Below, in pieces: positions 15,547 to 37,464 of a DNA stretch of 64,000 bases; the first letter of the stretch is position 1, and each line of letters opens with the position of its first letter. The position numbers and the translations under genes are program-made. The stretch is from Deltaproteobacteria bacterium (GTDB taxonomy: Bacteria; Desulfobacterota_D; UBA1144; Nemesobacterales; CSP1-2). The DNA lies in assembly GCA_016187835.1 (NCBI GenBank), contig JACPIY010000028.1, positions 33,455 through 97,454 of the forward strand. Direction: 5' to 3'. The notes beneath the pieces were generated by a model that ran no database searches, was not told the DNA's origin, and saw only the letters and a program-made list of their open reading frames with translations.

Positions 15547-15572
15547 TAGAGACGCCATTAATGGCGTCTCTA
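15547..15572. promoter_or_regulatory. 26-bp perfect palindrome tagagacgccattaatggcgtctcta
   Basis: Checked base by base. It has the same outer half-sites (TAGAGAC-N12-GTCTCTA) as the palindrome at 37435-37464. Confidence 0.5.
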
Positions 15573-15749
15573 CCATATTAGATTCCCACTAAGTACTTGC
15601 AAGTGACAGATTTATATATTCGCTAGAGCGTATTTATGTGTAACATCGGTTGAGAATGCCACTAAGTTTATACACTACAGACAAACTGATGTCGTGCTGG
15701 GTCTTTGATGTGGACTGAGTTTAAGTGTCTGTAGTACGATCCGACTTCT

Positions 15750-16064
15750 TTATGCCGAGTGTCTGCATTCGGGAAGAATGTGGCTACGTTCGACATCCTC
15801 AAGAGTGTCTGAGCTAGTGGGCTGTGAACCGGCATTCAGTCCCAAAACAGACTCGTCAATCTGAAGTTCTGAGCCATGAGAAATCACTACTGCCCTTTCA
15901 ATTACATTCTGTAGCTCTCTTATGTTTCCAGGCCAAGAATAGTTAGTAAGCCGATCCATAGTATCCTTTGGAACAACTCTAACTTGTTTCCCAAACTTTT
16001 TCGTGAATTTGACAAAACAGCTTAGGGCGTTAAAACCTGAGTGGGCAAATTGTAACGTGAGAGA
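15750..16064 (-). pseudogene. Remnant of a sigma-54-dependent (NtrC/EBP-type) transcriptional activator, consisting only of the C-terminal end of the AAA+ domain and a degraded HTH
   Basis: ...FVKFTKKFGKQVRVVPKDTMDRLTNYSWPGNIRELQNVIERAVV matches the EBP C-terminal consensus (YxWPGNVRELxNxIERA). An upstream in-frame TAG leaves no room for the receiver and ATPase N-terminus. Confidence 0.55.
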
Positions 16065-16359
16065 AAGCTAATAATATCATTTTAAGAAAAAGATTCCGGC
16101 TTTTAAAAGTTATGTAAAACCAAGGAGAGTGGGGCAGTTCGCGAACCGCCCTACAACAAAATTTAGGATCCATTCAATGAACTTGTATAACCCTTGTTTT
16201 TCAGAAACTTAGTTTTATAATTTTACGAAAGGGCGATGATTGATTAATATATTAATAAGAACGATTGCATTAGAGGAGTGACAAGAATTCGTATTATTAT
16301 TTAATATAAGTTTACGAATTCGACCGCATCTGGTACAGAGCTAATGGAGGGATGAAGTA

Positions 16360-16518
16360 ATGCCTAAGAAGGGGCGAAGAAAAATAAAAGATTTGGTTGA
16401 CATGCTTGAAGATCCGGATAACTCGGGTTATATCGGTGGCGATTACGAAGACCTAATGGAACAAATTGAAAGAGAATTGGCCGAACAAGAGGAAGATCAA
16501 GAAATAAAAGAAGAATAG
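16360..16518 (+). CDS. Small acidic protein (52 aa), hypothetical
   Basis: ATG with ggaggg 8 nt upstream. It reads MPKKGRRKIKDLVDMLEDPDNSGYIGGDYEDLMEQIERELAEQEEDQEIKEE. It overlaps the 3' end of mnmG convergently by 22 nt. Confidence 0.3.
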   Translation: MPKKGRRKIKDLVDMLEDPDNSGYIGGDYEDLMEQIERELAEQEEDQEIKEE

Positions 16519-18407
16519 CTTTCTTTACTTTGAAGTTCCTTCCGTTTTAGGTAAACCATGAGAACAGAAATTGCAGCGGGTGTAATCCCCGATATTCGGC
16601 TTGCCTGTCCGAGAGAATTTGGACGAATTCGTGAAAGTTTTTGGACGATTTCTCTTGAGAGACCAGGGATGCTTTCATATGAAAAACTTTCGGGTATTTT
16701 TATGTTTTCAATCTGCTTAAATTTATCTACCTGCTCCATCTGTTTTTGAATATAACCTTCGTACTTAACTTCCATTTCAACTTGTGAGAAAATATCGCTG
16801 CCGATAAAAGCTCTAGAAGGCGGATCAATGAAACTGAGTTCATTATATGAAATCTCAGGACGTCTTAAAATTTCTTTAAGTGTCTGTGGTTTCTTAAGCT
16901 GTGAAGAACCAAGTTGCAGAAGGATTTCATTAAACTTGGAGTTCGGAAGAATCTTTGTGTTTTCCAGTCTGTCAAGTTCTTCTCGAATCCTTCTTTTCTT
17001 GTCTAGAAAACTCTCAAAATCACCTTCCTTGACTAGACCAATTTTATAACCCTTTTCTCTGAGTCGTAGGTCAGCATTATCTTCTCTGAGAATTAGACGA
17101 TACTCAGCACGCGAGGTAAACATCCTGTACGGCTCATCCACTCCTTTTGTTACAAGGTCGTCAATCAGTATCCCAATATAAGCCTCGGCACGGTCAAATA
17201 TAAGAGGTTCCTCTCCTTTTACGAGAAGCGCTGCGTTTATTCCAGCGATAAGCCCCTGGGACGCTGCTTCCTCGTAACCTGTCGTGCCGTTTATCTGCCC
17301 TGCAAAAAAGAGATTCTCGATGATCTTTGTTTCCAGCGTTGGTTTTAGTTGAGTAGGATCCGAAAAATCGTATTCAACTGCGTATCCCGGTCTCATAATT
17401 TCAACCTGTTCGAGACCTCTAATCGTCCTTATAAATTCATATTGAACTTCAAGCGGAAGGCTTGTTGAAATCCCGTTTGGATAAATCTCATAGGTGGCGA
17501 CTCCTTCAGGTTCAAGGAATATCTGATGCCTTTCCTTGTCAGGAAACTTTACAACCTTATCCTCGATTGAAGGACAGTATCTTGGACCGATGCCTTTAAT
17601 CACTCCCGAATAAAGCGGCGATTTATGCAGGTTGTCTCTAATTACCTGATGACTCTTTTCATTTGTATACGTTATGTAACACGGTAGCTGTTCTCTTTCG
17701 ATTCTGTCGTTTGAGAATGAAAACGGTTTAGGATCGGAATCTCCGGGTTGGACCTCGAGTATTTCCCAGTTGACTGTTCTTCCGTCGAGTCTTGGTGGAG
17801 TTCCGGTTTTGAGCCTTCCGATTTTAAAACCAAGGCTCTCGAATGAATCGGAAATCCCAACGGCAGGCGCTTCGCCTGCACGTCCTGCAGAAATCTGTGT
17901 TAGCCCTATGTGCATGAGTCCATTTGGAAACGTGCCCGGAGTAACCACTACGGCATCGGCGAAGAAATGCTCCCCAAGATTGGTTTTTACTCCAACTACT
18001 TTTCCCCCTTCAACCAGAAAACCCTCCACCATTCTCTGCTTTATATCAATGTTTTTCTCTGCCTCAAGGACTTTTCTCATGTAGATTTTGTAGGCTTGTC
18101 TGTCTGCCTGAATTCTCGTTGCTTGAACAGCGGCTCCTTTCCTTGTGTTTAGTCTTCTGAATTGAATCGCGGTTGCATCAGCGGCTTTTCCCATCTCTCC
18201 GCCAAGAGCGTCTATCTCCTTTACGAGATGTCCTTTCCCAACCCCGCCAATAGAGGGATTACAGGACATAAGCCCTATAGTATCAATGTTTGCAGTTAGT
18301 AGAAGGGTCTTACATCCCATCCTCGCCGGTGCAAGCGCGGCTTCACACCCTGCGTGTCCTGCGCCGATTACGATTACCTGATGTTTCTTTGTGTATGTAA
18401 TAGCCAT
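16497..18407 (-). CDS. mnmG: tRNA uridine-5-carboxymethylaminomethyl modification enzyme MnmG (GidA)
   Basis: MAITYTKKHQVIVIGAGHAGCEAA... is full-length MnmG (636 aa). Confidence 0.92.
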   Translation of the reverse strand: MAITYTKKHQVIVIGAGHAGCEAALAPARMGCKTLLLTANIDTIGLMSCNPSIGGVGKGHLVKEIDALGGEMGKAADATAIQFRRLNTRKGAAVQATRIQADRQAYKIYMRKVLEAEKNIDIKQRMVEGFLVEGGKVVGVKTNLGEHFFADAVVVTPGTFPNGLMHIGLTQISAGRAGEAPAVGISDSFESLGFKIGRLKTGTPPRLDGRTVNWEILEVQPGDSDPKPFSFSNDRIEREQLPCYITYTNEKSHQVIRDNLHKSPLYSGVIKGIGPRYCPSIEDKVVKFPDKERHQIFLEPEGVATYEIYPNGISTSLPLEVQYEFIRTIRGLEQVEIMRPGYAVEYDFSDPTQLKPTLETKIIENLFFAGQINGTTGYEEAASQGLIAGINAALLVKGEEPLIFDRAEAYIGILIDDLVTKGVDEPYRMFTSRAEYRLILREDNADLRLREKGYKIGLVKEGDFESFLDKKRRIREELDRLENTKILPNSKFNEILLQLGSSQLKKPQTLKEILRRPEISYNELSFIDPPSRAFIGSDIFSQVEMEVKYEGYIQKQMEQVDKFKQIENIKIPESFSYESIPGLSREIVQKLSRIRPNSLGQASRISGITPAAISVLMVYLKRKELQSKESYSSFIS

Positions 18408-18506
18408 AGTTTTAGCTGCCTTCCTTCAAATGAATTTAGAAAATTCTAAATACACAATGAGGAATCGTCAAATGTTTGCCTTTCTTGCTTTGTAAGTGAG
18501 TGTTAT

Positions 18507-18628
18507 CTGGGAAATGATGTGGCTAAATGTAGAGCGAATATTTTAGTGAAGGCTTATCTTCACTGAAAATGATAGAACTAATTTTGTAGGAGTTAAAATT
18601 TACTTGAGTACTGCTTTACTAGCTTGGA
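18507..18628. repeat. Left copy of a roughly 125-bp direct repeat that flanks the GC-rich segment 18629-21439
   Basis: About 75% identical to 21440-21570 (gggaaatga.g.ggctaa..gt.gagc.aata.ttt ... cttgga). Confidence 0.5.
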
Positions 18629-18670
18629 AAAAAACAGTTGACAAGTATGAATGATTTTGATATAAGTTGC

Positions 18671-18706
18671 CCTAAAGAACTAGTACTAAAGTACTAGTTC
18701 TTTAGG
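18671..18706. promoter_or_regulatory. Perfect inverted repeat cctaaagaactagtact-aa-agtactagttctttagg (17-2-17), 35 nt upstream of the 18742 gene, in the mnmG divergent region
   Basis: Verified by reverse complement. It is a candidate operator. Confidence 0.5.
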
Positions 18707-18741
18707 ATTAATTTTTACAGGAAAGGGAATGAGGTTCTCCA

Positions 18742-19179
18742 ATGGTGAGGGAAGAATTAGAAAAGGTCTGGGAAAAACATACCACCGCAGAGTTTCTGAA
18801 AAGAGATTTGGAGGCAACCATGGCGACGATGGTGGATGAACCTTACATTAAAATAATACCAATCAATGTCGGTGGAAGTGGTAAAGATGGAGTGCGTGCG
18901 TTCTACAGTGACGTTATGATTCCGTCGATTCCCGATGACCTTCAGGCAAGGATCATAAATCGCATTATTGGCGATAGGCATTTAGTAGATGAAATATACT
19001 TTACTTTCACTCACAACAAGCAGATGGATTGGTTCCTACCAGGCATACCCTCCACAAACAAGAGGATAGAACTTGAACACGTGGTAGTAGTGGAGTTTCG
19101 CGGTGACAAAATCGCAGGTGAGCGCGTTTACTGGGACCACGCAACGGTGTTGCGGCAAGTGGGGCTGTTGAAAGATTAA
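18742..19179 (+). CDS. NTF2-like / SnoaL-like small protein
   Basis: Size and pattern (…EFLKRDLEATMATMVDEPYIKIIP…ERVYWDHATVLRQVGLL) are consistent with the SnoaL/limonene-epoxide-hydrolase-like fold. This is a weak call. Confidence 0.4.
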   Translation: MVREELEKVWEKHTTAEFLKRDLEATMATMVDEPYIKIIPINVGGSGKDGVRAFYSDVMIPSIPDDLQARIINRIIGDRHLVDEIYFTFTHNKQMDWFLPGIPSTNKRIELEHVVVVEFRGDKIAGERVYWDHATVLRQVGLLKD

Positions 19180-19264
19180 GAATAGGAGTGGCTATTTTTT
19201 TTAACTTCTGCCGCGAGAACTATATTTGGCGCCACCTGACAAAAAGTAGTCAAGAGGTGATTTA

Positions 19265-19843
19265 GTGAATTTTGAAGAAAATTTTACAAGGAGTAAGATT
19301 ACTCGCCGAGATATGCTTGCCAAGATGGGTACTGGTTTGGTGGCCATCACGGTTAGCAGTGTTTGGGGGCAAATTAGTCCTTCACAAGCTCGGGCCAAAG
19401 GTGTAGCGCTGCGTAACCTTACCACTGTTGAAGGCCGTACGCTGGAGGCTCTCGGAGACATTTTGCTGCCTGGTGCCAGCGAAGCTGGTATTGCGCACTA
19501 TGTAGATGACCAGTTGAGTCGCGAAAATCCACTATTTGTCCTGAAATACATGGATTATGTTGGTTCCTATACCGAATTTTATAAACAGGGTTTGCAATCG
19601 CTGGAACGCCAAAGCCTCGCCAACCATGGTCAGCCTTTCGATACGAGTACTCTCGAGCAAAAGGTCGCGCTAGTGCGCGAGATTTCACAGAAAAACCCGG
19701 ATGGCTGGAGCGGACCACCTGCGCCTTTGTTTTATTTTGTCACCCGCAACGACGCTGTAGATGTTTACTATGGCACGACGCGGGGCTTTGAGAAGCTTGC
19801 GATTCCCTATATGGCCCATATTATACCGCCGCAAAAGTGGTGA
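19265..19843 (+). CDS. Gluconate 2-dehydrogenase subunit 3-like small subunit with a Tat signal
   Basis: A twin-arginine motif (TRRDMLAKMGTGLVAITVSS) precedes a domain typical of the small subunits that pair with GMC flavoproteins. Confidence 0.55.
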   Translation: MNFEENFTRSKITRRDMLAKMGTGLVAITVSSVWGQISPSQARAKGVALRNLTTVEGRTLEALGDILLPGASEAGIAHYVDDQLSRENPLFVLKYMDYVGSYTEFYKQGLQSLERQSLANHGQPFDTSTLEQKVALVREISQKNPDGWSGPPAPLFYFVTRNDAVDVYYGTTRGFEKLAIPYMAHIIPPQKW

Positions 19844-21410
19844 TAGATATAATGGATAAAGTTGATGTTGTGATTGTAGGGTCAGGAGCTTCGGGAAGCT
19901 TACTCGCAGCCAAATTGTCTCAAGCTGGCAAAAAAGTGTTGATTCTGGAGGCAGGTCCTGAGCTCAAAATGAGTTATCTTTACAGCTCACAGATCTGGGC
20001 GCGCCGCCTTAAGTGGGGTGGTCCAGCCACCGAAACAGGTGGGAAAGACCCCATTTCCGTAGCATTCAACCAGGGTTGGGGGAGTGGTGGAGTTGCAATG
20101 CACCACTACGCAGTGTGGTTGAGACTGTACATAGAAGACTTTGAGATGAAAAGTCGGTTCGGCCGGGGCTTGAAATGGCCTATTTCATACGAAGAGTTGC
20201 GTCCATTTTACGACCAAATTCAGAGAGAAGTCGGTATTTCGGGAGACGCTAAAGAAGAGGTGTGGAGACCAGTGGGCGAGCCTTACCCTATGCCCCCACT
20301 TCAGATTTTCAATCAGGGTAGGATTATTGAGGGGGGATTTAAAAAACTGGGTTTGCGCACTTCGTCACTTCCGGTGGCCATTAACTCGATAGAGTATAAC
20401 GGTCGCCCTGCTTGTATTTATGACGGCTGGTGTGATGCGGGCTGACCGATTTACGCCCTTGCAAACCCTCTGGCCGTTTACTTGCCACAGGCGCAAAAAG
20501 CGGGGAGTAAGATTGCACACGACATTTATGTTACTCGCATATTGGTTAAAGCTAAAGGTGATCGAGCAACCGGAGTTGAGTATTACGACGCCAAAGGTCA
20601 GCGTCAAGTTCAGGAGGCGAGCATAGTTATTTTGGCGGCGTTCACAGTGCAGAACCCTAGAATTCTGCTCAACTCTTTCACTACCAAGCATACCAATGGG
20701 CTTGCCAACTCAAGCCGATTACTCGGTAAGTACATGATGGCACACACTGCAGCCAACGTGTTTGGTCTTTTTAAAGAAGAAACTCAGAACTTCCTAGGTG
20801 TGACCGGCGGACAACTCTTGTCGCAAGACAATTATGCCAAGGACCCGCGCAAGGGCTATCTTGGCAGTTCACAGTGGGTACTCGCTAACGCTCTCAAACC
20901 CAACGACTTATTGGGTGTCGCCAACGCTCGTCCCGACCTGTTTGGTGACTCACTGCACAAATTTCTTGAAACCGCCAGTAAGCATCTTGCCACTATGAGT
21001 TTTTTGGCGAGAACTTGCCGAGTTTAGACAGTCAGTTGGTTATGAGCAATTATAAAGACAAGTACGGTCTACCATTGGCGCGCGTGATCCACGACTACGG
21101 TCCAGATGACATCAAATGTTTTGAGGTAGGTATGAAACAAGGACAAGAAATTTTCAAAGCGGCAGGAGCTTACGATGTTTGGGTCAGCGGGCGAGCCAAC
21201 GCGCACATGATGGGAGGCACGATCATGGGCCGCAGTGCTCTGACTTCGGTAACAAATAGCCACGGACAAACCCAAGATATTATCAACCTGTTCATAGCAG
21301 GGCCAGGCCTTTTCCCCACGGGAGGTGCTGTGAATCCGACCTTTACAATTCATGCGCTAACACTGCGGTCAGCCAAATATATACTTGACAACTGGTCAGC
21401 TCTGACTTAA
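19837..21410 (+). pseudogene. GMC-family FAD flavoprotein (gluconate 2-dehydrogenase large-subunit-like), disrupted by an in-frame TGA at 20443-20445 and a frameshift in a T6 run near 21005
   Basis: N-terminal DVVIVGSGASG dinucleotide fold. GWCDAG-TGA-PIYALANP sits where the GMC motif has GC-P. The pieces MSFLAR / GENLPSLDS are separated by a one-base shift in agttttttgg. The C-terminus GPGLFPTGGAVNPTFTIHAL is the GMC C-terminal motif. Confidence 0.65.
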
Positions 21411-21439
21411 AAATTGATCAGTCTTACAGATTTCAGTTG

Positions 21440-21570
21440 TCCGGGAAATGAGGGGGCTAAGCGTGGAGCAAATACTTTGGTTAAGACTCGTCATTTTAAA
21501 GTTAAACAAAAGATAGAATCAATTGCTGGGAGTCTACACTTTTCTAGCGAACTGCTTCTACTTGCTTGGA
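21440..21570. repeat. Right copy of the direct repeat flanking the GC-rich segment
   Basis: See 18507-18628. Confidence 0.5.
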
Positions 21571-21637
21571 GTTTCTAGCATCAATGGAATCCCAAGTAAG
21601 AGAATGGTAAAATGACCATCCAACTAATGGGTATGAT

Positions 21638-21961: not shown

Positions 21962-21983
21962 GCCAATATTTAGCCACAGATTT

Positions 21984-22023
21984 ACCCCGTGAGATAAATT
22001 AAAGCTACTAGATCTCACGGGGT
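21984..22023 (+). terminator. Hairpin accccgtgagat-N16-atctcacggggt directly after the SCP2 gene, with no U-tract. It is a member of the CCCCRTGAGATA hairpin family.
   Basis: 12-bp stem verified. The same arms recur at 46323-46352, 58008-58040 (inverted) and 60998-61026. Confidence 0.35.
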
Positions 22024-22294
22024 GAACAAGAATCAACATCAGTTCGATATAACTTTTCAAGAGCGGGAAATTAATTATGCAGCGGGATTAGAAAATCCCG
22101 CCTAGCTATATTTAGGATCCTGGATAGGTGGGACATTTCCTTCGATAAACTCAGGACAGGCCTGTTCTCCTATTACCAAATTAATATTAAAAAAACCAAT
22201 AGCACTCCAAGAGAAAGTGGAATCCTGAAGGATTCCGCCACAATAAAGCTCTTCCGTCGAACTCACGTTTATCCACTATTCAAAGAACTATTTG

Positions 22295-23032: not shown

Positions 23033-24577
23033 ATGTTAGATCGAATCAATGTTGATTTAATAGAGCAGATAAAGGAGAAGATTTTCAGTATCGTTTTAGA
23101 CTCTCAAAAAATCCTCAACAACTGTCACTACATAGATTTGAGGATAGGAGTAAGTGAGTCCAAATATGCCGTAGCCCAAAAAGGTGCTCCGAAAGAGGGC
23201 AGGGAAGAAGCGCAGATGTCTTTTAGTCTAAAGACGGTAGCGGGAGATCGCTTAAGAGCTTCCGGATACTTCGCCTCTTATCTTGGTGCGTCCGATCTAA
23301 AAAGGCTGGAAGTTGTTATAAAGGAAGGTATTGAACATGCTTACAGGCGTGCGCTGGCAAATGCTTCACTAAAGCTAAAGATGAAAGATATTCTGGGGGA
23401 ACTTGGAGAGTCAATATCGAGCACTAATCTTTCTCCAATTGAAATTTATAAAGATACTGTTGCTTTCCCCATTAAAGAAGACTCAAGAGGTATTTCACTT
23501 GAGAGCATAGTCAAAGAGGCGGTTGGCATATCTGATTCGGTTGAAAAACTCTATGAGTCCAATGGCTACAATGTGATTTCCATCTATACAACTATTGCTA
23601 GAGAGCTTTTTGCATCGTCAGAAGGAGCTCTAATTGATCAAACATACCCTCTTACGGAGGGCTTTGCTTATGTTCTTGTCGGAGACGAGCCGAACTATGA
23701 CCATTTGGGTGGAAGGTGCGGATGGGAAGCAATTCATGGAGAAAATCACTTTAATAAAACCTTTCATGATTTTGCTTTGGATCTAGCAAGAGAAACCATA
23801 GAACTTTCTAAAGCTGAAGTGCTTCCTTCCACCGATAAGGAGGTAGTGGTCGTTACAAACCCTCACTATAACGCCCTTCTCGTCCACGAAATCATAGGTC
23901 ATCCGGCCGAAGCGGATAGAGCGCTCAAAACAGAGACTGCCTACGCTGGAAGAAGCTGGTTATTCAGGGGATTTGATAAGAACCAGATCGGGAAAAAAGT
24001 AGCGTCTGATTTGGTAACCGCTTATTCAGATACTTCCCTCCCAGGTTATGGAAATTATAAGTACGACGCTGAGGGAGTAAGAGGGAAAAAAGTAGTTCAT
24101 ATTGATAAGGGCTTATTTCGGGGATTTTTAAACAGTCGTGAAACTGCGACAATTCTCGGCGAGGAGCCAAACGGTGCTATGCAGGCACCCTATACCTATT
24201 TTATTCCGCTCGTAAGGATGACAAACACGGTGTTTGCTCCCGGGGAGAGAAATCCTGAGGGAATAATCAAAGAGGTGGATGACGGATATTATCTCGTGGG
24301 TCACCATACACCTTCAATCGGAGAATCACGAGAGAATTTTAGTATATCGGCACGTCGCGTTCATAAAATAAAAAACGGCGAGCTTGTAAAGCTCTATAGA
24401 AGCGGAGGAATGACTTCAGATTCAAGGGATTATTTGATGAACGTTGATGCTGTGGGGAATGATTTTCGATTGTTTCCCATGCCAAACTGCGGAAAGGGGA
24501 TACCCATGCAGGCGCTTCGGGTGGGAAACGGAGGGCCAACTATGCGTAGCAAGGCAAGGCTTAGGGGTGGGAAGTAG
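23033..24577 (+). CDS. tldD: TldD-family metallopeptidase
   Basis: LLVHEIIGHPAEADR is the HExxxH motif. Overall length and C-terminal region are TldD-like. Confidence 0.8.
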   Translation: MLDRINVDLIEQIKEKIFSIVLDSQKILNNCHYIDLRIGVSESKYAVAQKGAPKEGREEAQMSFSLKTVAGDRLRASGYFASYLGASDLKRLEVVIKEGIEHAYRRALANASLKLKMKDILGELGESISSTNLSPIEIYKDTVAFPIKEDSRGISLESIVKEAVGISDSVEKLYESNGYNVISIYTTIARELFASSEGALIDQTYPLTEGFAYVLVGDEPNYDHLGGRCGWEAIHGENHFNKTFHDFALDLARETIELSKAEVLPSTDKEVVVVTNPHYNALLVHEIIGHPAEADRALKTETAYAGRSWLFRGFDKNQIGKKVASDLVTAYSDTSLPGYGNYKYDAEGVRGKKVVHIDKGLFRGFLNSRETATILGEEPNGAMQAPYTYFIPLVRMTNTVFAPGERNPEGIIKEVDDGYYLVGHHTPSIGESRENFSISARRVHKIKNGELVKLYRSGGMTSDSRDYLMNVDAVGNDFRLFPMPNCGKGIPMQALRVGNGGPTMRSKARLRGGK

Positions 24578-24764: not shown

Positions 24765-26243
24765 TTGATGATTACCATAGAAGACCTAAGAAAATGCGTA
24801 AAAGACGGGATTCAATTTGTTGAATCTCAAAATGATATTAGAGAAGCTGAGATATTCGCTTCCTGGAACGACAACGTGACGGTTAGAATCAATTACACAT
24901 CCGATATTCCGTGTAATGGTGTCCATGAGCCAAAAAACATCGTCGGGTATGGAGTTGGCATTGTAGCTGTGTTTGACACACCTGAGGGTTTCAAAATAGG
25001 CTCAGGAAGCGATACTGGAGACTTGAGCCCTGAGGGAATAAAGAGGGCCTTTGAGAAAGCCAGACAAAATTCGGTGAGCGACCCTAATTTTAAATCCCTC
25101 CCCCCTCCACCCGATGAAACACCCAAGCTTATTTCATATCATGACATGAACGTGATGAATTTAATGGATGAAGACATGGTCTCTCTTGGCTGGAGTGCTT
25201 TAAAGGGCGCTCTGTTGACATTTAAAGACGCGGGTTTTCTAAAGAGCCTGATTGTGGGAGGCGATGTTACGATTCTAAAAGAGAGAATGGCGATAGCAAG
25301 CACTCTAGGGATTGATGAATATGATGAGTCCTCCGCTCTCTTTGCATCCATTACTTCAATGATTGAGGAAAAGGATGCAAAAGGCACTGGGTGGACTACT
25401 GCGACTCATCTTGACAAGTTCAAACCGGAAGAAGCTGGAGCGATGGCGGCGATAAGCGCGATAAGCACTATTGAAGGGACGAGGATAAGATCGGGAAGCT
25501 ACAACGTGGTTTTTGGAAGGCAAGCCGTCGCCATGCTTTTCTCGGAGATGATAATTTCAGCATTATCCCTTAACTCAATAGATTCGGGTAACTCTCCCTT
25601 CGTCGGGAAGTTAGGGGAAAAGGTCGCTTCCGACATTGTTTCTATATATGATGACGGGGCAAGACTCTGGGAAGTCGGGAGCAAAAAAATTACCTGTGAG
25701 GGAATTCCTACGGGAAGGACAGATTTAATAGAAGAGGGAAGACTGGTTGGATTTCTTTCCAACAACTACTATGCGAAAAAGCTAGAGAGCAACGTTGCCA
25801 AATTTACACCGAGAAACGGGTTTAGGTTTGGAGATTTGGGAAGGGATTTTAGGCAAAACAATTCTATTTTTGCTACGAATCTTGTGATAGAAGGAACGAG
25901 GGAATTGGACTCCGGAAAGCTGATTTCCCATGTAAAGGATGGAATCTACATTGGAAGACTCTGGTATCTCTATCCGGTTCACGGACTGGTAAAGGCGGAC
26001 TTTACTGGGACCGTGATTGGCGATTCGTATATAATCAGAAACGGAAGATTGGAAGAGCCGCTCAAACCCAATACCGTGAGAATCAGCGATAACTTTGTAA
26101 ATCTCCTCCAAAACATCACGGGAATATCAGAAGAGAAAAGAACTACGATGATCTGGGATTCCAAAGAGGTTGTGATTGCCCCTGAGATTGCTGTTAAAGG
26201 AATGAGTCTCGAAAACGTTGCTGAGTTTGTGGAGGAGTTGTAG
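24765..26243 (+). CDS. pmbA: PmbA/TldE-family protein, partner of TldD
   Basis: TldE/PmbA family features (…GDSYIIRNGRLEEPLKPNTVRISDNFVNLLQNI…). It has no HExxH. It lies immediately downstream of tldD. Confidence 0.7.
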   Translation: MMITIEDLRKCVKDGIQFVESQNDIREAEIFASWNDNVTVRINYTSDIPCNGVHEPKNIVGYGVGIVAVFDTPEGFKIGSGSDTGDLSPEGIKRAFEKARQNSVSDPNFKSLPPPPDETPKLISYHDMNVMNLMDEDMVSLGWSALKGALLTFKDAGFLKSLIVGGDVTILKERMAIASTLGIDEYDESSALFASITSMIEEKDAKGTGWTTATHLDKFKPEEAGAMAAISAISTIEGTRIRSGSYNVVFGRQAVAMLFSEMIISALSLNSIDSGNSPFVGKLGEKVASDIVSIYDDGARLWEVGSKKITCEGIPTGRTDLIEEGRLVGFLSNNYYAKKLESNVAKFTPRNGFRFGDLGRDFRQNNSIFATNLVIEGTRELDSGKLISHVKDGIYIGRLWYLYPVHGLVKADFTGTVIGDSYIIRNGRLEEPLKPNTVRISDNFVNLLQNITGISEEKRTTMIWDSKEVVIAPEIAVKGMSLENVAEFVEEL

Positions 26244-26295: not shown

Positions 26296-28848
26296 ATGAA
26301 GCCATATAAAGGTAAGCTTCTCTTATCAGCACTTCTTATAGCAACACTCACGTGTTTCCTCACGTCAAACTCCTATGCCCAATTAGAATCAAAGGAAAGA
26401 GGATGGAAGGGGCCATTATGTAAAAGACCAACATGCAAAAACGAGTTATTAAAAGAATTAAAAAAAGTTCAAGGAGACAGATATCAAACAGTTGAAGGTT
26501 ATATTATACAAGGCGATGACATTATTGCTATTATAAAAGAATCCAATATTGATATTAAAATCTATAACTCAATTATAAAGGGCGGGTTGGATTTTTCTAA
26601 GATACCAGAAGTCAATGGCAAACGTGAGGTAAATAATAAGATTGTGATATTGGATTCTGAAATTGGCTCTCGGCTTGAATTTTATTTTGCAGAAGAACTT
26701 CAAGAGGTTACTATTTTGCTGAGGTTAAGGGAAGAATCCATTCTTGCACAGCAAACCCATTTTAATAGAGATATCTTTTTCAGTTTGAAAACCACTTTCA
26801 ACGGTGATGTAGATTTTGCAGGCGCAACATTCAACCGAAATGCAATCTTCTCAAATACCACATTCAGTGGATATACAGGCTTTTCTGGAGTCACATTCGT
26901 TGGTAAGGCGTATTTTTCATATGCCAAATTCAATCGAGATACAAGCTTCGTTCGAGCCACCTTCGACAAGGAAGCAAATTTTGGACTAACTGTTTTCAAT
27001 GGTGAGGCAGACTTTCCGAATTCTACTTTCAAGCAAGGGGTAAACTTTGATAGAGCTGAGTTCAATGGTTATACGAACTTCTCAGGAGTAACCTTCAGCG
27101 GAGAAACAATATTTTGGAATACTAGCTTCACCAAAGTAGCAGATTTCAGAGATTGTAGTTTCAGTGGAATTGCAACGTTCTTGAGTACAAACTTTATTGA
27201 TGTGGCAGACTTCTCAAATACCACTTTCAGCAGAAATGCAAACTTTCAAGAAGCCGTATTCGAAAAGGCAGCATATTTTAGAAAAGCAACATTTTATGGT
27301 CTCTTATCCTTTGCAAATTCTTCATTCAAAGGATACGTTGGCCTGAGAGACACTACAATCAAAACAATTTACTGGATAAATTTCTCCTCAAGCTCGTCTG
27401 TTTTTGGCTTGATTGATATTTTAGGCCGGGTTGAACTAAGGGATGCTCAAGTTACAGAAGCATATTTTGAAGATATCTTCTTCAAAGATGATGTAGATTT
27501 TTCTGACACAGAGTTTGGTAGCCCTTTTCTGCTGTTTGATCAAAGTGATGTTCTTAATTGGCAAAAGCTTTTTAATAAGTTAAAAGAAAATAAAATTTCA
27601 GAAAAAAACACTTTAGCTAACCAAATAAATGAGAAGCTAGATCAGACACTTGAACGCCATGGAATTAACCTTAGTAAGGTTAAAGAGTTCGACGATAGCC
27701 TTAAAATAAAATTTATTGTTGCTTTGAATTCAATTCTCGAAAACACAGATTTATCTTATGAAGAATTTTCTGAACAGCTAGATAAAGAAAATCAGATAGC
27801 AAAAAAACTTCTGAAGAAAGATAGAGATAAACTTACTCGAATCGAAACAACTCTTTTAAATAGATTTCTAATTGAGTCTCTCTACCCAGACATTATCGCA
27901 AGTAAAACGCGGGAAATACAAGACGATGACTTTGCAACTGTTTTCAGATTTGTTACTTTTGGCTCTGATGTAAGTTTTGTCAGGACAAAATTTTATAGCA
28001 ATACTGCCTTTGAAAGCCTTACTTTTAAAAAAGAGACCAACTTTACAAGTGCTGAATTTAAGAAAAGCATATTCAGCATTAATGAACCAATATTTTCTCT
28101 TTCATACCTGAATTTTAGAAATTTAATTATTAATTTCGAACAGCTTCCCAAACTTGAAAACTGGGTACGTGATTCAAAGCATCGCATAAAAGGGCGGGCA
28201 GATAGGTGGAATAAGTCTAACAATTTGGGGAAGCCCCTCCAACCTGTTTCACAAGTGTTAGCAGAACTGGAGTCAACCTTTCTCAAGGAGAACAAGCTAA
28301 GTGACATGAACGAGGCTCATTATCATATGAAAATTGCTGAACTGGACGAAAAGATAGTAGATTGTAAGAACACGAATAGGGACTTTATACAATGTCTCAT
28401 CACCACTGAAGAAGGGAGAGAGTGGCTTAAATGGGGTTGGAGCAGTGGATATGGCGTGAAATTATGGCGGGTTGTCAAATGGTATATCGGTGTTTGGGTT
28501 TTTTTCGCTTTTATTTATTATGCACTTAGGGAGGATCTTGAAACAAAGAAAAATAAAGACACAAAGCCTGATTCTGAATTCAGGTCGAGGCTGCACAACT
28601 TTCCCTGGCACTTCTTAAAATCTGAGGGCATCAAAAACAAAAAAGTATTGGATTTCTTTACTGCTCTAAGATTCAGTAAAGTGCTACTTTTTAAGATTGG
28701 ACGGAGAGACACAGTGGCTTCAGGCAAACTAGTAATGACTATGGTATGGTTTGAGTGGATACTCGGATACTATTTGCTTTTGGTTTTTATAATCACCCTT
28801 ACAAACACTGTTCCTATCCTTAATAGTATTTTGAGTAGCGTATTCTAA
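26296..28848 (+). CDS. Large (850 aa) secreted pentapeptide-repeat protein with a central coiled-coil and two C-terminal TM helices
   Basis: Signal peptide. About 60 consecutive A(D/N)FxG-type pentapeptide repeats (ATFNRNAIFSNTTFSGYTGFSGVTF...). C-terminal hydrophobic helices WYIGVWVFFAFIYYAL and WILGYYLLLVFIITL. Confidence 0.75.
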   Translation: MKPYKGKLLLSALLIATLTCFLTSNSYAQLESKERGWKGPLCKRPTCKNELLKELKKVQGDRYQTVEGYIIQGDDIIAIIKESNIDIKIYNSIIKGGLDFSKIPEVNGKREVNNKIVILDSEIGSRLEFYFAEELQEVTILLRLREESILAQQTHFNRDIFFSLKTTFNGDVDFAGATFNRNAIFSNTTFSGYTGFSGVTFVGKAYFSYAKFNRDTSFVRATFDKEANFGLTVFNGEADFPNSTFKQGVNFDRAEFNGYTNFSGVTFSGETIFWNTSFTKVADFRDCSFSGIATFLSTNFIDVADFSNTTFSRNANFQEAVFEKAAYFRKATFYGLLSFANSSFKGYVGLRDTTIKTIYWINFSSSSSVFGLIDILGRVELRDAQVTEAYFEDIFFKDDVDFSDTEFGSPFLLFDQSDVLNWQKLFNKLKENKISEKNTLANQINEKLDQTLERHGINLSKVKEFDDSLKIKFIVALNSILENTDLSYEEFSEQLDKENQIAKKLLKKDRDKLTRIETTLLNRFLIESLYPDIIASKTREIQDDDFATVFRFVTFGSDVSFVRTKFYSNTAFESLTFKKETNFTSAEFKKSIFSINEPIFSLSYLNFRNLIINFEQLPKLENWVRDSKHRIKGRADRWNKSNNLGKPLQPVSQVLAELESTFLKENKLSDMNEAHYHMKIAELDEKIVDCKNTNRDFIQCLITTEEGREWLKWGWSSGYGVKLWRVVKWYIGVWVFFAFIYYALREDLETKKNKDTKPDSEFRSRLHNFPWHFLKSEGIKNKKVLDFFTALRFSKVLLFKIGRRDTVASGKLVMTMVWFEWILGYYLLLVFIITLTNTVPILNSILSSVF

Positions 28849-32737: not shown

Positions 32738-33000
32738 TTTTAAAAAGAATAGATTAAGCTGATCCAACTTTCATTTGTAGCAGTTTTCAGGTGAGTGTAC
32801 GGTATTTCTTCATTTCATAACCCGTTCACACAGCCTGTCGAAGGGTGTTGGGCGTCCTTCGATAAGCATGTCCTGAGCAAGGTCGAAGGACTCAGGACGA
32901 ACGGATATAAGCAGTAATGCCGCATACGCAAATTAAAACCGTTGCAATATTCATCCCAAGATAGCTCTTTTTTTAATTTAAGATAGAATTAATATGAAAT

Positions 33001-33702: not shown

Positions 33703-33742
33703 ATTCATCCCCGCTTTTAATCCCAGGTAAAATTATTCTACT

Positions 33743-36556
33743 TTGCAATCAATCAAAATTATTGGAGCAAGGGAGCATAATCTAAGGAACATAAGCCTTG
33801 AGATTCCGAGGGGAGAGTTCATTGTCGTCACTGGGGTAAGCGGTTCGGGCAAATCCTCTCTTGCCTTTGACACTATTTTTGCAGAAGGCCAGAGGAGATA
33901 CATGGAATCTCTCTCTGCATATGCGAGGCAATTTGTAGAGAGAATTGATAAGCCCGATATAGATTCTATTGAAGGACTTTCTCCATCCATCTCGGTAGAT
34001 CAGAAAACATTTCAGAGGAATCCGCGGTCAACCGTAGGCACCATAACCGAGATCTATGATTTTCTAAGACTCCTATTCGCACGTCTTGGAAAACCCCACT
34101 GCTATAAATGCGGGGGTGAAATATCCGCCCAAAATCTTGAAAAGATGATAGACCGCATACTTTCTCTCGGAACGGGGGAAAAGGTCTCCATATTCTCACC
34201 TATTGTAAAGGGAAGAAAGGGTGAGTATAAAAAGGAGCTCGATGAGCTCAGGAATCAGGGGTTTCTCCGGGTAAGGATTGACGGAAAGTTTTTTGACCTG
34301 GAAGATGAGATACATCTTGAGAAGCAAAAGAAGCATACAATTGAACTCATTGTAGATGTGGTTGTACTTCGCGGCGATAATTTAAGAACCAGGATTGAGG
34401 ATTCGTTAAGACTCGCTTTAAAACGTGGAGGAGGAGTTGCAAGAGTAGAGACCGAGAGTGGAAAGACTATTACGTTCAGTGAAAAATTTGCCTGCCCTAC
34501 GTGCGGGATAAGTTACCCTGAGATCTCTCCCAGGCTTTTTTCATTCAATAGTCCATACGGCGCATGTCCTGAGTGCCAGGGACTCGGAGTGAAATCATTT
34601 TTCGATCCCGAGCTTGTGGTTGAGAGCTGGGACAAGTCAATTGAGGAAGGGACGATAATTCCCTGGAGAAATTCTAGCTACTTCCGTCGGTTAATAGAAT
34701 CCGTTGCCAGACACTATAAATTCAGCTTAAAAACGCCCCTTAAAAAGCTTCCCTTAAAAATACAAAAAATAATCCTCTACGGCTCAGGAGATGAGAAAAT
34801 TAGGTTTTATAGAGAAAGCGGGAGATGGATTGACGACTACTGGGACACATTTTCCGGAGTGATTGGAATTATCTCGGAGTGGTACAATGAGACTCAATCT
34901 GACGATGTAAGAGAAGCTCTTTCTAAATATGTACGCAGCGTTACCTGTTCTTCATGTAACGGCTCAAGACTTAAAAAGGAGAGCCTGACGGTGTTGGTGC
35001 ATGAAAAATCTATCCACGACATAACAACTATGTCGGTGGATGAGTGTGGCAGATTTTTCGAGAGTCTTGAGCTTGTAGGGAGGGAAAGAGAGATTGGCGA
35101 GAGAATTCTTAAAGAGATCAACTCCCGCCTAAGCTTCCTTAAGAATGTTGGTCTTGGATATCTTACTCTTGATCGTCCGGCGCCTACGCTTTCAGGTGGC
35201 GAGGCTCAGAGAATAAGGCTTGCAACGCAGGTAGGATCAAAACTCACGGGTATTACTTATGTACTCGACGAACCGACAATCGGCCTTCACCCCAGAGACA
35301 ATAAGAGGCTTATTCATACTCTCAAATCTCTAAGAGATAGTGGAAACACAATCTTAGTGGTTGAGCACGATGAAGAAACCATAAGGAATGCGGATTTTAT
35401 CGTGGATATGGGACCTGGGGCAGGAGAAAAAGGCGGTGAGATTGTTGCTCGGGGAAAGATTTTCGATTTAATGAGAAATGAGAGATCACTTACGGGGAAG
35501 TACCTTTCAGGAGAGCTTTCAATCTCTATTCCTAACGAGAGAAGAAAACCCGAAGGATACATAACGATAAAAGGTGCCAGTGAAAATAATCTGAAGAATG
35601 TGGATGTTCCCTTTCCGCTCCGTGTTTTTACGTGCGTCACAGGGGTTTCGGGTTCGGGGAAAAGCACGCTTGCTATTGATTCCTTACACAATGCGCTTTG
35701 TGCAAAGCTATATGGGAGCAAAGAAAAAGTAGGCAAACACTCGGAAATTATCGGAGATGGCGAGATTAATAAGGTTGTAAACGTTGATCAGTCTCCGATT
35801 GGAAGAACTCCAAGGTCGAATCCTGCAACGTACACCGGGGTTTTTACTCCGATAAGGGAGCTTTTCTCCATGCTTACAGAGGCAAAGATGAGGGGATATA
35901 AACCCGGCAGATTCAGTTTTAATGTTCAAGACGGAAGGTGTGATGGATGCAAGGGTGAAGGAACGGTGAAAATAGAAATGCACTTTCTGCCAGACGTTTA
36001 TGTAAGGTGTGAGCAATGCGGAGGCAAAAGATTCAATTCTGAAACTCTTGAGGTTAAATATAAGGAAAAAAGTATTGCCGATGTTCTAGATATGACCATC
36101 AGTGAAGCGCTAGAGTTTTTTAATAATGTCCCCCAAATAAAATCCAAACTCCAAGTCCTTCACGCTGTAGGGCTTGATTACATAAGGCTCGGTCAGCCTG
36201 CCACGACGCTTTCAGGCGGGGAGGCTCAGAGGATAAAACTCGCAAAAGAACTGTCAAGGCGAGCTACAGGCAGAACCCTCTATATACTGGATGAACCTAC
36301 TATCGGACTTCATTTTGATGATGTGAGGAGATTGCTCGAAGTCATCCAGAGGCTTGTCGATATGGGGAATACCGTAGTTGTAATTGAGCATAACCTTGAT
36401 GTGATAAAGTGCGCCGATTATATAATTGACCTCGGACCAGAGGGTGGGAAAGAGGGAGGGAGGGTTGTTGCTTATGGCACGCCTGAAGAGGTTTCTCAGG
36501 TCGAAGGATCATATACTGGTATGTTCCTTAAGAGGGTGCTTGAAAACCGAACTTGA
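33743..36556 (+). CDS. uvrA: Excinuclease ABC subunit A
   Basis: IIGAREHNLRNISLEIPRGEFIVVTGVSGSGKSSLAFDT. Two ABC modules and zinc-finger cysteines. Confidence 0.95.
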   Translation: MQSIKIIGAREHNLRNISLEIPRGEFIVVTGVSGSGKSSLAFDTIFAEGQRRYMESLSAYARQFVERIDKPDIDSIEGLSPSISVDQKTFQRNPRSTVGTITEIYDFLRLLFARLGKPHCYKCGGEISAQNLEKMIDRILSLGTGEKVSIFSPIVKGRKGEYKKELDELRNQGFLRVRIDGKFFDLEDEIHLEKQKKHTIELIVDVVVLRGDNLRTRIEDSLRLALKRGGGVARVETESGKTITFSEKFACPTCGISYPEISPRLFSFNSPYGACPECQGLGVKSFFDPELVVESWDKSIEEGTIIPWRNSSYFRRLIESVARHYKFSLKTPLKKLPLKIQKIILYGSGDEKIRFYRESGRWIDDYWDTFSGVIGIISEWYNETQSDDVREALSKYVRSVTCSSCNGSRLKKESLTVLVHEKSIHDITTMSVDECGRFFESLELVGREREIGERILKEINSRLSFLKNVGLGYLTLDRPAPTLSGGEAQRIRLATQVGSKLTGITYVLDEPTIGLHPRDNKRLIHTLKSLRDSGNTILVVEHDEETIRNADFIVDMGPGAGEKGGEIVARGKIFDLMRNERSLTGKYLSGELSISIPNERRKPEGYITIKGASENNLKNVDVPFPLRVFTCVTGVSGSGKSTLAIDSLHNALCAKLYGSKEKVGKHSEIIGDGEINKVVNVDQSPIGRTPRSNPATYTGVFTPIRELFSMLTEAKMRGYKPGRFSFNVQDGRCDGCKGEGTVKIEMHFLPDVYVRCEQCGGKRFNSETLEVKYKEKSIADVLDMTISEALEFFNNVPQIKSKLQVLHAVGLDYIRLGQPATTLSGGEAQRIKLAKELSRRATGRTLYILDEPTIGLHFDDVRRLLEVIQRLVDMGNTVVVIEHNLDVIKCADYIIDLGPEGGKEGGRVVAYGTPEEVSQVEGSYTGMFLKRVLENRT

Positions 36557-36650
36557 TAAATTTCTTTTAGGTATAAAACCTTAACTAACCCCTAATATCT
36601 TTTTCATGTAGAATTACTTTCCTTATTTTCTAATACATACGGAGAATCTA

Positions 36651-37367
36651 TTGGATTTACTACAGTCTATTGTTCTCGGAATCGTGCAAGGTATCACAGA
36701 GTTTCTTCCCATAAGCAGCACCGCACATCTGGCTCTTATCCCCTGGTTTTTTAAGTGGAATGACCCCGGGCTTGCTTTTGATGTTGCTCTACACATAGGA
36801 ACCCTTGTTGCTGTGATCTATTACTTCTGGCGTGAATGGGTGGTGATTATAAGAGGATTAATACAAGGTTTGCTCTCAGTAAGCTTTGCAAAAAATCCCA
36901 ATGGGAAGCTGGGAGTATATATCATCATTGCAACCATACCTGGAGCACTCTCAGGGTTTATATTTGAGGAGCAAGCATCTGGAATACTTAGACACCCCAT
37001 TGCTATTGCGGTCTCAGTCTTTTTCTTTGGAGTAATTCTTTACGTATTTGATAAATTCTCTAGAAAAGAAAAAGGAATTTCGGATTTAAATATTTTTGAT
37101 TGCCTGGTGGTAGGGATTGCTCAAGCTTTTGCGATAATTCCTGGAGTATCGCGCTCTGGAGTTTCAATTACAGGCGGTCTAATTAGATTAGATTATGCAA
37201 CCGTTGCAAGTCCTCCATTCATCGTTGGAATTCTCACGTCCGCCCTTTTTGGTTTTCTAAGCATAAAGTATCTTCTAAGATACCTTCAAGCTAAGACCTA
37301 TACTGTGTTTGTTATATACCGCGTAGCGCTGGCAGCTTTTATTTTATTTCTTTATTTTGGCAGATAA
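36651..37367 (+). CDS. uppP: Undecaprenyl-diphosphatase
   Basis: MDLLQSIVLGIVQGITEFLPISSTAHL is the BacA/UppP signature. Confidence 0.85.
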   Translation: MDLLQSIVLGIVQGITEFLPISSTAHLALIPWFFKWNDPGLAFDVALHIGTLVAVIYYFWREWVVIIRGLIQGLLSVSFAKNPNGKLGVYIIIATIPGALSGFIFEEQASGILRHPIAIAVSVFFFGVILYVFDKFSRKEKGISDLNIFDCLVVGIAQAFAIIPGVSRSGVSITGGLIRLDYATVASPPFIVGILTSALFGFLSIKYLLRYLQAKTYTVFVIYRVALAAFILFLYFGR

Positions 37368-37434
37368 GTTGCTTCTTGCGCTCAGGGTTCTTCAATGCAG
37401 GATGTCAAGTATACTAAGTGAGTCAGTTGCTCTC

Positions 37435-37464
37435 TGTAGAGACACAAAATTTTGTGTCTCTACA
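37435..37464. promoter_or_regulatory. 30-bp perfect palindrome tgtagagacacaaaattttgtgtctctaca between uppP and the secreted TldD-like gene
   Basis: Verified by reverse complement. It has the half-sites TAGAGAC-N12-GTCTCTA, as at 15547-15572. Confidence 0.5.

Follow-up and report, generated by a model that had tools for sequence, protein, structure and literature searches.

Results

Two perfect palindromes with common half-sites

The window examined here is a 64,000-nt stretch of contig JACPIY010000028.1 in the Deltaproteobacteria bacterium assembly GCA_016187835.1. It carries ordinary chromosomal genes, with no transposase or phage gene found among them, and two of its intergenic spacers hold perfect palindromes that share the arrangement TAGAGAC-N12-GTCTCTA, the core of the short repeated element considered in this study. 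Site 1, TAGAGACGCCATTAATGGCGTCTCTA, occupies 15547-15572 (26 bp); mnmG (16497-18407) and a cyclase gene (14491-15336), both on the minus strand, border the 1160-nt gap that contains it. Site 2, TGTAGAGACACAAAATTTTGTGTCTCTACA, occupies 37435-37464 (30 bp); the distance to it from the stop codon of a BacA/UppP gene (36651-37367) is 70 nt, and a PmbA/TldD-like gene (37577-39274) on the same strand follows after 115 nt. Direct reading of the sequence confirms a preliminary description of these sites: the palindromes are perfect over their full lengths, the letters given for both 12-nt spacers are right, each spacer is palindromic by itself and the genes around site 2 are those named.

With up to two mismatches allowed, TAGAGAC-N12-GTCTCTA matched exactly twice in the window, at these two sites, against an expectation of 0.11 (standard deviation 0.31); none of 100 dinucleotide-preserving shuffles gave two matches. 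Freeing the spacer to any length from 0 to 30 nt still returned only the same two sites. By itself the half-site TAGAGAC is not enriched in the window (10 matches versus 7.5 expected), and the signal therefore resides in the paired arrangement. The Logan assemblies SRR12113422 and SRR12113401, two independent ones of the same organism from SRA, match the window with 100% identity over site 2 and the region downstream of it, so that site 2 is no assembly artefact. Both Logan contigs (L001 and L002) end inside the palindrome, where de Bruijn assemblers tend to break. The flanks of site 1 and site 2 have nothing in common beyond GTCTCTAC-ATA; the sites are therefore not parts of a longer miniature inverted-repeat transposable element. 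The natural unit is 28 bp long, G-TAGAGAC-N12-GTCTCTA-C. It is intact in site 2 (37436-37463); in site 1 (15546-15573) a T replaces the first G, leaving TTAG on one strand.

A family of 28-bp palindromes

Both sites belong to a family of palindromes of fixed 28-bp length, GTAGAGAC-N12-GTCTCTAC, whose two strands each start with 5′-GTAG. A scan of IMG/VR with TAGAGAC-N12-GTCTCTA returned at least 135 sites. Among those listed, 32 had a fully palindromic N12, for which the chance is 1 in 4096, and in 27 more of the 135 the four outer spacer positions were paired around a free 4-nt centre. The 20-base pattern GTAGAGACGC-N8-GCGTCTCTAC, for which our own estimate of the expectation is far below one, occurred in 86 viral stretches, some of them contigs of ~20-25 kb with 4-6 copies. 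In JGI and other metagenomes, GTAGAGAC-N12-GTCTCTAC matched at least 136 sites; among those listed, 86 were perfect 28-bp palindromes and most others had one mismatch. The contigs concerned, some of them from human-gut assemblies, have a GC content of 0.29-0.66. Over-representation of the family is strong both in IMG/VR and in the JGI metagenome contigs.

The length of the element is nearly constant. The spacer measured 12 nt in 226 of 235 AGAGAC..GTCTCT pairs, in loci that had themselves been retrieved with N12 patterns, and the arm length of perfect palindromes peaked sharply at 14 (108/182). A G precedes TAGAGAC in 103 of 115 sites and a C follows the opposite half-site in 101 of 115, with GTAG pairing with CTAC. 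Outside the terminal G..C, complementarity does not exceed chance except in a small tail, and the 28-mer is not bordered by direct repeats of 2-5 bp in the collected loci.

To describe the stem we used an alignment of 120 distinct members (A3), which is also the basis of a covariance model (R1). The outer eight pairs are nearly invariant, and at the four inner pairs every Watson-Crick type occurs while complementarity is kept. Over the 12-bp helix, 98.8% of the cells are paired, and 304 cells carry double changes versus 78 in shuffles, a value that 0 of 500 shuffles reached; sliding the register makes the signal drop sharply. Complementarity also holds, in 83% of A3 cells, at the two central 'pairs', although these could not form in a hairpin. 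Single mismatches in the stem are mostly transitions and show no sense-strand bias (8 G.T versus 7 A.C). Because of this central symmetry and the lack of a wobble-strand bias, we think of a constraint or a generating mechanism at the DNA level and not purely of an RNA hairpin. One anecdote contrasts with the unbiased pooled test: between Parabacteroides distasonis strains (L312/L313 versus L311, A5), the same copy differs by two transitions, both of which yield G.T on the sense strand (GAGAC to GAGAT and GCCCC to GCCTC), pointing towards RNA-compatible wobble.

Sister types with the same 28-bp architecture, including GTAGGGGC.., GTAGGGAC.. and GTAGCGAC.., occur in the same loci together with others. 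Partial copies of the arms also stand in tandem with, or nested beside, full copies (L163 at ~3200-3750, L185 at 6755-6800, L147 at 3482-3530, L062 at 1036, L181 at 1513 and L081 at 1426). As an example, two copies of GTAGAGACGCACGAT followed by a full element give rise to repeated 'VETHD' or 'VQTQNLASLQ' units in portal proteins.

Position relative to genes

The positions of family members were taken from crude calling of open reading frames (ORFs). Intergenic members lie at a median of ~20 nt past the upstream stop codon, and the distances to the next start are broader. Neighbouring genes are mostly of like orientation (++/-- in 97 cases), with 32 cases of convergence (+-) and 14 of -+. In the structural module of a myovirus whose nearest cultured relatives infect Proteobacteria, copies follow the genes for the head protease, the major head protein and the tail sheath. 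Metagenomic copies stand beside ordinary cellular genes, including cyanobacterial and Bacteroidota markers. In P. distasonis, one copy fills a spacer in which the sister species has a hairpin and a T6 terminator; all strains of P. distasonis are filled and the sister species is too diverged, which leaves no empty-site comparison at high identity. Two of the viral contigs that bear the element have other features of their own: a CRISPR-DR4-type repeat array on L053 (1651-1678 and 5799-6006) and an int-alpA RNA motif on L032 (6601-6667).

About 40% of the copies fall within long ORFs and never in the TAG-reading frame, a larger inside-gene share than is usually reported for repetitive extragenic palindromes (REPs). 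The peptides that they encode read VETxxxxSL or (G)RDxxxxVST. Four copies lie in a single type IIG restriction-modification gene and are missing from homologues of 61-70% identity, and one homologue has an independent copy at the same spot; the net change in length varies in this gene from +4 to +10 amino acids. A GH2 beta-galactosidase holds two copies, and single copies occur in a histidine kinase, CheA, Der, Vsr and portal proteins. In the linker of the Der GTPase of a Bacteroidales lineage, the insert is inherited and is decaying among homologues of 81-96% identity. An all-against-all search of flanks yielded a single filled and empty pair, which differs by exactly 30 nt (10 codons) and whose flanks are 76% identical. 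No empty site of high identity was found: all Der homologues carry the insert or a decayed form of it, and for the product of the window's mnmG there is no record to compare.

Link to a RAYT-like transposase

Two of the genes next to the element encode transposases. In Spirosoma, the gene of an annotated transposase of 175 residues has the element directly against its stop codon, and in Fulvitalea the CTA of the element provides the TAG stop of a 200-residue transposase. Both proteins match only one NCBIfam family, NF047646, REP-associated tyrosine transposase (RAYT), with 63-65 bits. Five more RAYT-like ORFs likewise have NF047646 as their sole NCBIfam match, and the E values of all seven range from 1e-10 to 1e-18. 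By sequence, the best match in the PDB is TnpA-REP of E. coli (4ER8; E = 0.007). To judge from these comparisons, the RAYT-like proteins are a divergent subfamily. All aligned members have an HUH-like 'NHIH/NHVH' motif, 'GSYKSAV', 'WQxRFxDHIIRN' and a conserved Tyr region.

The association extends to loci that had been retrieved by the DNA motif alone. When the Spirosoma and Fulvitalea proteins were compared by tblastn with 120 such metagenome loci, 10 contained a homologue of 33-59% identity. Nine of these 10 loci have the element in frame within the RAYT-like ORF, always at one position, directly after the HUH motif, according to the layout ..MPNHIHGIL..[VETxxxxSL or RDxxxxVST]..SIIGSYKSAV..WQxRFHDHIIRN... 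The reading phase varies between loci, so that these copies do not all stem from a single inherited insertion. In several RAYT-like loci a further copy lies just upstream of the gene. For a gene that makes up ~0.01-0.02% of a genome, to be encountered with 8% of the random copies means that the two are very strongly associated.

Plasmids rarely encode the subfamily (3 of 72,556), and in two of the three the element lies at the 3′ end of the gene. In the third, from Leptolinea (Chloroflexota; L321), GTAG-type REPs that belong to the GGGC type flank the gene. Three hairpins downstream of it, GGGGTGGAYGCGRTCCACCCC, follow each other at 147-nt spacing (2089-2109, 2236-2256 and 2384-2404) and may be a clustered REP array. 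Searches by tblastn with three RAYTs of the gammaproteobacterial type found no match anywhere; the family was recovered only with the RAYT-like proteins of Bacteroidota.

Distribution across organisms

A composite of 14 variants located the element in 36 PLSDB records. The cyanobacterial matches include Nostoc sp. PCC 7120 pGamma, Calothrix, Planktothrix, Anabaena, Trichormus, Brasilonema and Kovacikia, and those in Bacteroidota include P. distasonis, Spirosoma, Emticicia, Persicobacter and Fulvitalea. In one P. distasonis assembly, at least 13 records hold copies. An identical 28-mer occurs in Calothrix and Kovacikia, both Cyanobacteria, and in a Bacteroidales metagenome-assembled genome (MAG); another is shared by Spirosoma and viral contigs. 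Among 50,697 isolate phage records, neither the 30-mer of site 2 nor any of the 14 variants was matched, and none of the variants occurred in 5,426 E. coli genomes.

Copies in the window and their surroundings

Both intact copies in the window are of the AGAC type and are given without strand. Copy 1 (15546-15573; TTAGAGACGCCATTAATGGCGTCTCTAC, a perfect palindrome over 15547-15572) scores 26.9 bits with R1 (E = 7.6e-7), and as single-stranded DNA it folds with -11.8 kcal/mol (z = -9.4). From the commonest family member, GTAGAGACGCGATTAATCGCGTCTCTAC, it differs in one compensated inner pair and in the first base (T for G). Copy 2 (37436-37463; GTAGAGACACAAAATTTTGTGTCTCTAC, with palindromy one pair longer at 37435-37464) scores 43.4 bits (E = 3.6e-13) and folds with -12.4 kcal/mol (z = -6.3). 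It is one compensated pair away from GTAGAGACGCAAAATTTTGCGTCTCTAC, which is present in viral, metagenome and Nostoc sequences.

Copy 3 (39320-39347, without strand; GTAGGGGCGAACGGCTGTTCGTACCTAC) is a partly decayed member of the sister GGGC type that was found only through R1 (14.8 bits, E = 0.03) and a degenerate pattern search with one mismatch. It differs at 3 positions from GTAGGGGCGAACGGCCGTTCGCCCCTAC of metagenome locus L205, folds with -9.6 kcal/mol (z = -4.1) and lies 46 nt past the stop of the TldD-like gene (39274), before acs (39487); TATTTTTT starts 5 nt past its stem. Its assignment to the family is weaker than those of copies 1 and 2. Copy 4 (16129-16154, minus strand; GTAGGGCGGTTCGCGAACTGCCCCAC) came from the listing of inverted repeats and appears to be a decayed remnant of the GGGC type with indels. 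It resembles GTAGGGGCGGTTCGCGAACCGCCCCTAC of viral locus L189, is missed by R1 and folds weakly (-6.4 kcal/mol, z = -2.3), and we regard it as a family remnant only tentatively. The 64-kb window thus holds two intact and one or two decayed copies, and three of the four sit between same-strand genes, downstream of an ORF or the remnant of one.

For copy 1 this remnant is a piece of a sigma-54-dependent activator pseudogene on the minus strand (15750-15959, and on to ~15700), which on that strand lies ~150-180 nt upstream of the copy. The fragment comprises the end of the AAA+ domain, 'YSWPGNIRELQNVIERAVV', and then a broken Fis-type helix-turn-helix, without any N-terminal part. A gap of 1160 nt that holds a gene fragment and two palindromic elements suggests a decayed or rearranged region.

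Downstream of site 2 there is a promoter-like element, with TTGACA at 37521-37526, a 16-nt spacer and TAATCT at 37543-37548; its -35 box lies 58 nt from the end of the site. This core is kept upstream of the orthologous gene for the secreted PmbA/TldD-like protein in ten relatives, which have another upstream neighbour and no palindrome; in these (L003-L012) it reads TTGACA or TTTACA, a spacer of ~16-17 nt and TAATCT, followed by TTTT(T)A. Close relatives of the TldD-like protein are encoded by MAGs labelled Candidatus Dadabacteria or Thermodesulfobacteriota. Exact-pattern scans of the orthologous spacers of 11 relatives, in which synteny upstream of the TldD-like gene differs, found no palindrome, and R1 detected no copy in ~176 kb from the eleven. 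With Rfam 15, no match in the window reached the gathering score, and around site 2 there was only generic miRNA-like noise (E up to 10); over 13 viral loci, nothing in Rfam overlapped the elements. A tRNA and tmRNA scan of the window returned nothing, and a terminator scan called neither window site.

The window has several further features. Three paralogous PmbA/TldD-like genes lie within 16 kb (23033-24577, 24765-26243 and the one at 37577-39274), and the gene of an 850-residue pentapeptide-repeat protein (26296-28848) adjoins these paralogues. An unrelated second hairpin repeat without GTAG, CCCCGTGAGAT(A)...(T)ATCTCACGGGG, is found at 21981-22026, 46323-46351, 58008-58036 and 60992-61020. 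An intergenic element of ~350 bp is repeated at 46184-46538 and 54663-55011 with 83-98% identity in blocks and short tandem GGTCGAAATGACAG units, and a portion of this element is found again at 60840-60878. Close to where the window begins, a 79-nt direct repeat occurs three times with 66-81% identity (59-137, 754-832 and 3218-3296). A near-perfect palindrome of 36 bp, CCTAAAGAACTAGTACT-AA-AGTACTAGTTCTTTAGG (18671-18706), stands with a T-run after it in the 860-nt gap upstream of mnmG; the terminator scan lists it as terminator-like, but no gene is evident upstream of it. A GMC/FAD oxidoreductase is split over two ORFs (19837-20445 and 20482-21027), and an M48 peptidase and a dienelactone hydrolase (9194-9790; 49305-49814) cover only part of their Pfam models; these split or truncated ORFs may be pseudogenes or assembly frameshifts.

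Discussion

Best reading and proposed mechanism

We consider it likely that the palindromes of the window are REP-type non-autonomous elements recognised by a RAYT-like HUH/Y1 transposase. The preliminary description had mentioned a repeated hairpin element as one of two explanations, and the membership of both sites in a widespread family, together with the tie of that family to RAYT-like HUH/Y1 transposases, bears this one out. The motif is in effect itself a repeat, and occurrence only inside repeats is what had been named as speaking against an operator. Y1 transposases, such as those of IS200/IS605 and the RAYT enzymes, act as dimers on hairpin DNA. The common dimeric DNA-binding protein first proposed for the two sites therefore survives in a loose sense, as an implied transposase dimer on a hairpin, but not as a regulator, restriction or segregation factor on an operator.

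In the mechanism that we propose, either DNA strand would fold into a 12-13-bp hairpin, whose conserved outer 8-9 bp would most likely be the part recognised by the cognate RAYT-like HUH/Y1 enzyme, and whose inner stem could vary freely provided that pairing is kept. Dispersal of copies would come about when the enzyme binds the hairpin in its single-stranded form and cuts it; by analogy with IS200/IS605 and RAYT systems, the replication fork is the probable place for this. Such copies would persist where they do least harm, that is, after stop codons, between same-strand or converging genes and in frame within tolerant loops, where they add ~10 residues. The copies in the window would then be passive passengers in 3′ intergenic spacers, and whatever they might do to the 3′ ends of uppP or TldD-like transcripts would be secondary. 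Recognition and mobilisation by the RAYT-like enzyme are inferred steps, and the source genome would presumably encode such an enzyme outside the window.

Comparison with known systems

We adopt the REP-type reading because the properties of the family match those of published GTAG-tagged REPs and their RAYTs (PMC3733652, PMC3116915). Known REP/RAYT systems, including REPtrons and REPINs, were taken from PMC3733652, Bertels and Rainey 2011 (PMC3116915) and the structure 4ER8. According to Di Nocera et al. 2013 (PMC3733652), GTAG REPs bear a GTAG tag, lie no more than 20 bp from the 3′ ends of ORFs, use TAG as a stop, include in-frame gene copies and compensatory sub-families, and are associated with RAYTs. 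The same paper reports GTAG repeats from Proteobacteria, Cyanobacteria, Chloroflexi and the PVC group, with no report from Bacteroidetes. The 28-bp family likewise combines a palindrome in the 20-40-bp range and a terminal GTAG, here in a paired form, with compensatory stem sub-families and, in other genomes, association with a RAYT-like HUH/Y1 gene; its members, too, lie near the 3′ ends of ORFs between same-strand or converging genes, supply TAG as a stop and occur in frame inside genes. Even the GTAG-19 peptide of O. terrae, 'GRDARAT', resembles the GRDxxxxVST of this family. Unlike REPs, the members are strictly 28-bp perfect palindromes, usually through the centre, and they are mostly single copies, whereas REPs form inverted doublets. 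The RAYT-like gene, moreover, usually holds the element inside its ORF after the HUH motif, whereas a classical RAYT gene has REPs only on its flanks.

Other short hairpins resemble the element in part. Nostocaceae harbour small dispersed repeats (SDR1-8), which Elhai and colleagues reportedly described in 2008 as hairpins of 21-27 nt with compensatory mutations and nested self-insertions, and which are said to have been proposed as the smallest mobile elements, with an RNA intermediate. SDRs and the 28-bp family both occur in Nostoc and Anabaena, and the likeness is one of description. PMC5861425 reports SDRs as confined to Nostocaceae; the 28-bp family, unlike them, is also present in Bacteroidota, a Dadabacteria-like genome and phage contigs, and is linked to a DNA transposase. 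Compared with Rho-independent terminators, the element is similar in forming a stable hairpin tens of bases past a stop, but differs in that no T-tract follows, the stem sequence is kept across phyla and many copies lie in ORFs. The subterminal hairpins of IS200/IS605 insertion sequences are short and are recognised single-stranded by a dimeric HUH/Y1 transposase. The RAYT-like proteins resemble the IS200/IS605 enzymes in their HUH motif (..MPNHIHGI..) and conserved Tyr region; the IS200/IS605 hairpins, however, are imperfect and stand at both ends of an element that encodes its transposase, whereas here a free-standing 28-bp unit is dispersed alone. The Rickettsia palindromic element RPE-1 is roughly 100-150 bp long and occurs in Rickettsia only. 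Our element, by contrast, has 28 bp, adds ~10 residues and shows no lineage restriction. Two other Rickettsia elements, RPE-4 and RPE-6, have been reclassified as CGTC-type REPs, according to PMC3733652.

In the searchable literature, neither the DNA strings of the element, apart from primers, nor its encoded peptides appear. REP/RAYT systems as such are known, and the cyanobacterial members may already be catalogued as a GTAG family (GTAG-12, -15 or -16) or as an SDR.

Points against the REP-type reading and rival explanations

Several observations weigh against a REP-type origin. The complementarity of the central positions (83% of cells) is unneeded by a hairpin and is left unexplained by the model. 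In classical REPs the GTAG is unpaired and present at one end, whereas in the 28-bp family both strands have it and it pairs with CTAC; and REPs are restricted to a species, genus or order, whereas the same arms and identical 28-mers of this family recur across phyla and in phage contigs. The NF047646 scores, 40-65 bits, stay under the curated cut-off of 80 bits, and the proteins have no Pfam match. By tblastn, the RAYT-like gene is absent from the 64-kb window and from the loci of 11 relatives, and none of 176 motif-bearing viral loci encodes it. The copy number of the genome is known from 64 kb alone (two intact, one or two decayed). Finally, neither an insertion junction nor a target duplication can be defined, and the case for mobility comes from the distribution of the copies.

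The alternative put forward initially, a dimeric protein such as a regulator or a chromosome-organisation or segregation factor that reads TAGAGAC half-sites on double-stranded DNA, 20 bp apart from centre to centre, would account for identical half-sites at a fixed N12 spacing and for the location of site 2 upstream of a gene, and the palindromic centres and the lack of strand bias among mismatches would suit a symmetry imposed at the DNA level. Contacts with half-sites alone, however, fail to explain why four inner spacer pairs covary through all Watson-Crick types. The sites, moreover, cluster after stop codons and inside ORFs, not at promoters; site 2, described as being in a plausible operator position, is 58 nt upstream of a -35 box that is conserved in relatives without the palindrome. 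The occurrence of the same 28-mers in Cyanobacteria, Bacteroidota, proteobacterial-type prophages, phage structural modules and this Dadabacteria-like genome, and their strong enrichment in and beside RAYT-like genes, likewise speak against an operator, which we now regard as very unlikely. Coincidence, that is, a chance likeness of two unrelated terminator-like hairpins, could appeal to nothing but the small sample of two sites and is refuted by the shuffles and the expectation of 0.11, by the hundreds of members of identical 28-bp architecture elsewhere and by the R1 scores (E = 4e-13 and 8e-7); we assign it a negligible probability.

A role in RNA, as a terminator, an attenuator or a stabiliser of 3′ ends whose sequence is shared through a common RNA-binding or processing factor, is harder to dismiss, and such a role has been proposed for published REPs (PMC3733652). 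The hairpins are very stable, lie a median of ~20 nt past stop codons between same-strand genes, follow highly expressed phage structural genes and, in P. distasonis, take the spacer where the sister species has a canonical hairpin and T6 terminator. An RNA function, on the other hand, offers no reason for would-be loop bases, four in number, that are palindromic far above chance, nor for the ~40% of copies inside ORFs; the balance of G.T and A.C mismatches on the sense strand (8 versus 7) gives no sign of wobble tolerance, and the sense strand lacks a downstream T-tract (9 T-rich versus 31 A-rich of 85 oriented sites). As the general explanation this is therefore unlikely, although individual copies may have an RNA-level role as a secondary effect. 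Somewhat less probable still, in our view, is a tiny mobile repeat that spreads without a RAYT, through an RNA intermediate as proposed for SDRs or through hairpin slippage or template switching, with the RAYT-like gene serving merely as a preferred landing site. Half-copies that are partial, nested or in tandem beside full ones (L062, L081, L147, L163, L181 and L185), the presence of the element in Nostocales, where SDRs were described, and copies in phage genomes without a RAYT-like gene fit such a process. It does not lead one to expect 8% of random copies at RAYT-like genes, at one fixed position of the protein and in differing reading phases; nor does it predict REP copies flanking the gene in three cultured organisms, a link as tight as that expected of an enzyme and its substrate.

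Other candidates were set aside along the way. An intrinsic terminator was rejected on the T-tract counts and because the scan had called neither window site. Covarying interiors, placement in frame or after stops and occurrence in finished isolate genomes argue against a sequencing-adapter or linker artefact. Tn5/IS4 ends, dif/pdif-type Xer sites, attC sites, protelomerase targets, CRISPR repeats, DNA uptake sequences and paired BsmBI/BsmAI restriction sites were dropped for lack of fit.

Implications

For the source organism, the REP-type reading removes a false lead: there is no regulon signature, and no regulator of uppP, the TldD-like gene or the cyclase gene need be sought on this basis. 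For annotation, the element is useful to recognise, as it breaks de Bruijn assemblies, gives rise to small ORFs that are spurious and accounts for unusual 10-residue insertions in conserved enzymes.

How REPs originate and spread is a long-standing question, and their movement has been deduced mainly from within-genome patterns in a few Proteobacteria. The present family is attractive in this respect, as the same sequence occurs in several phyla that include cultured Nostoc, Calothrix, Parabacteroides and Spirosoma, is easily spotted in proteins through VETxxxxSL or RDxxxxVST, and is nested in a small RAYT-like gene; it offers a direct test system of one enzyme, one 28-nt hairpin and many natural variants. 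Going further, one may speculate that the element and a RAYT-like HUH transposase that holds its own substrate hairpin in frame constitute a compact 'REP-within-RAYT' system, which would have spread horizontally across Cyanobacteria, Bacteroidota, Chloroflexota-type relatives, Dadabacteria-like lineages and phages and seeded housekeeping proteins with 10-residue VETxxxxSL or RDxxxxVST inserts. We hold this larger proposal to be possible yet rather doubtful. If it were true, few known mobile DNAs that spread horizontally would be as small as the element, which would also be a rare case of a REP family tractable across phyla, and its perfect central symmetry would point to copying through a hairpin or fold-back intermediate.

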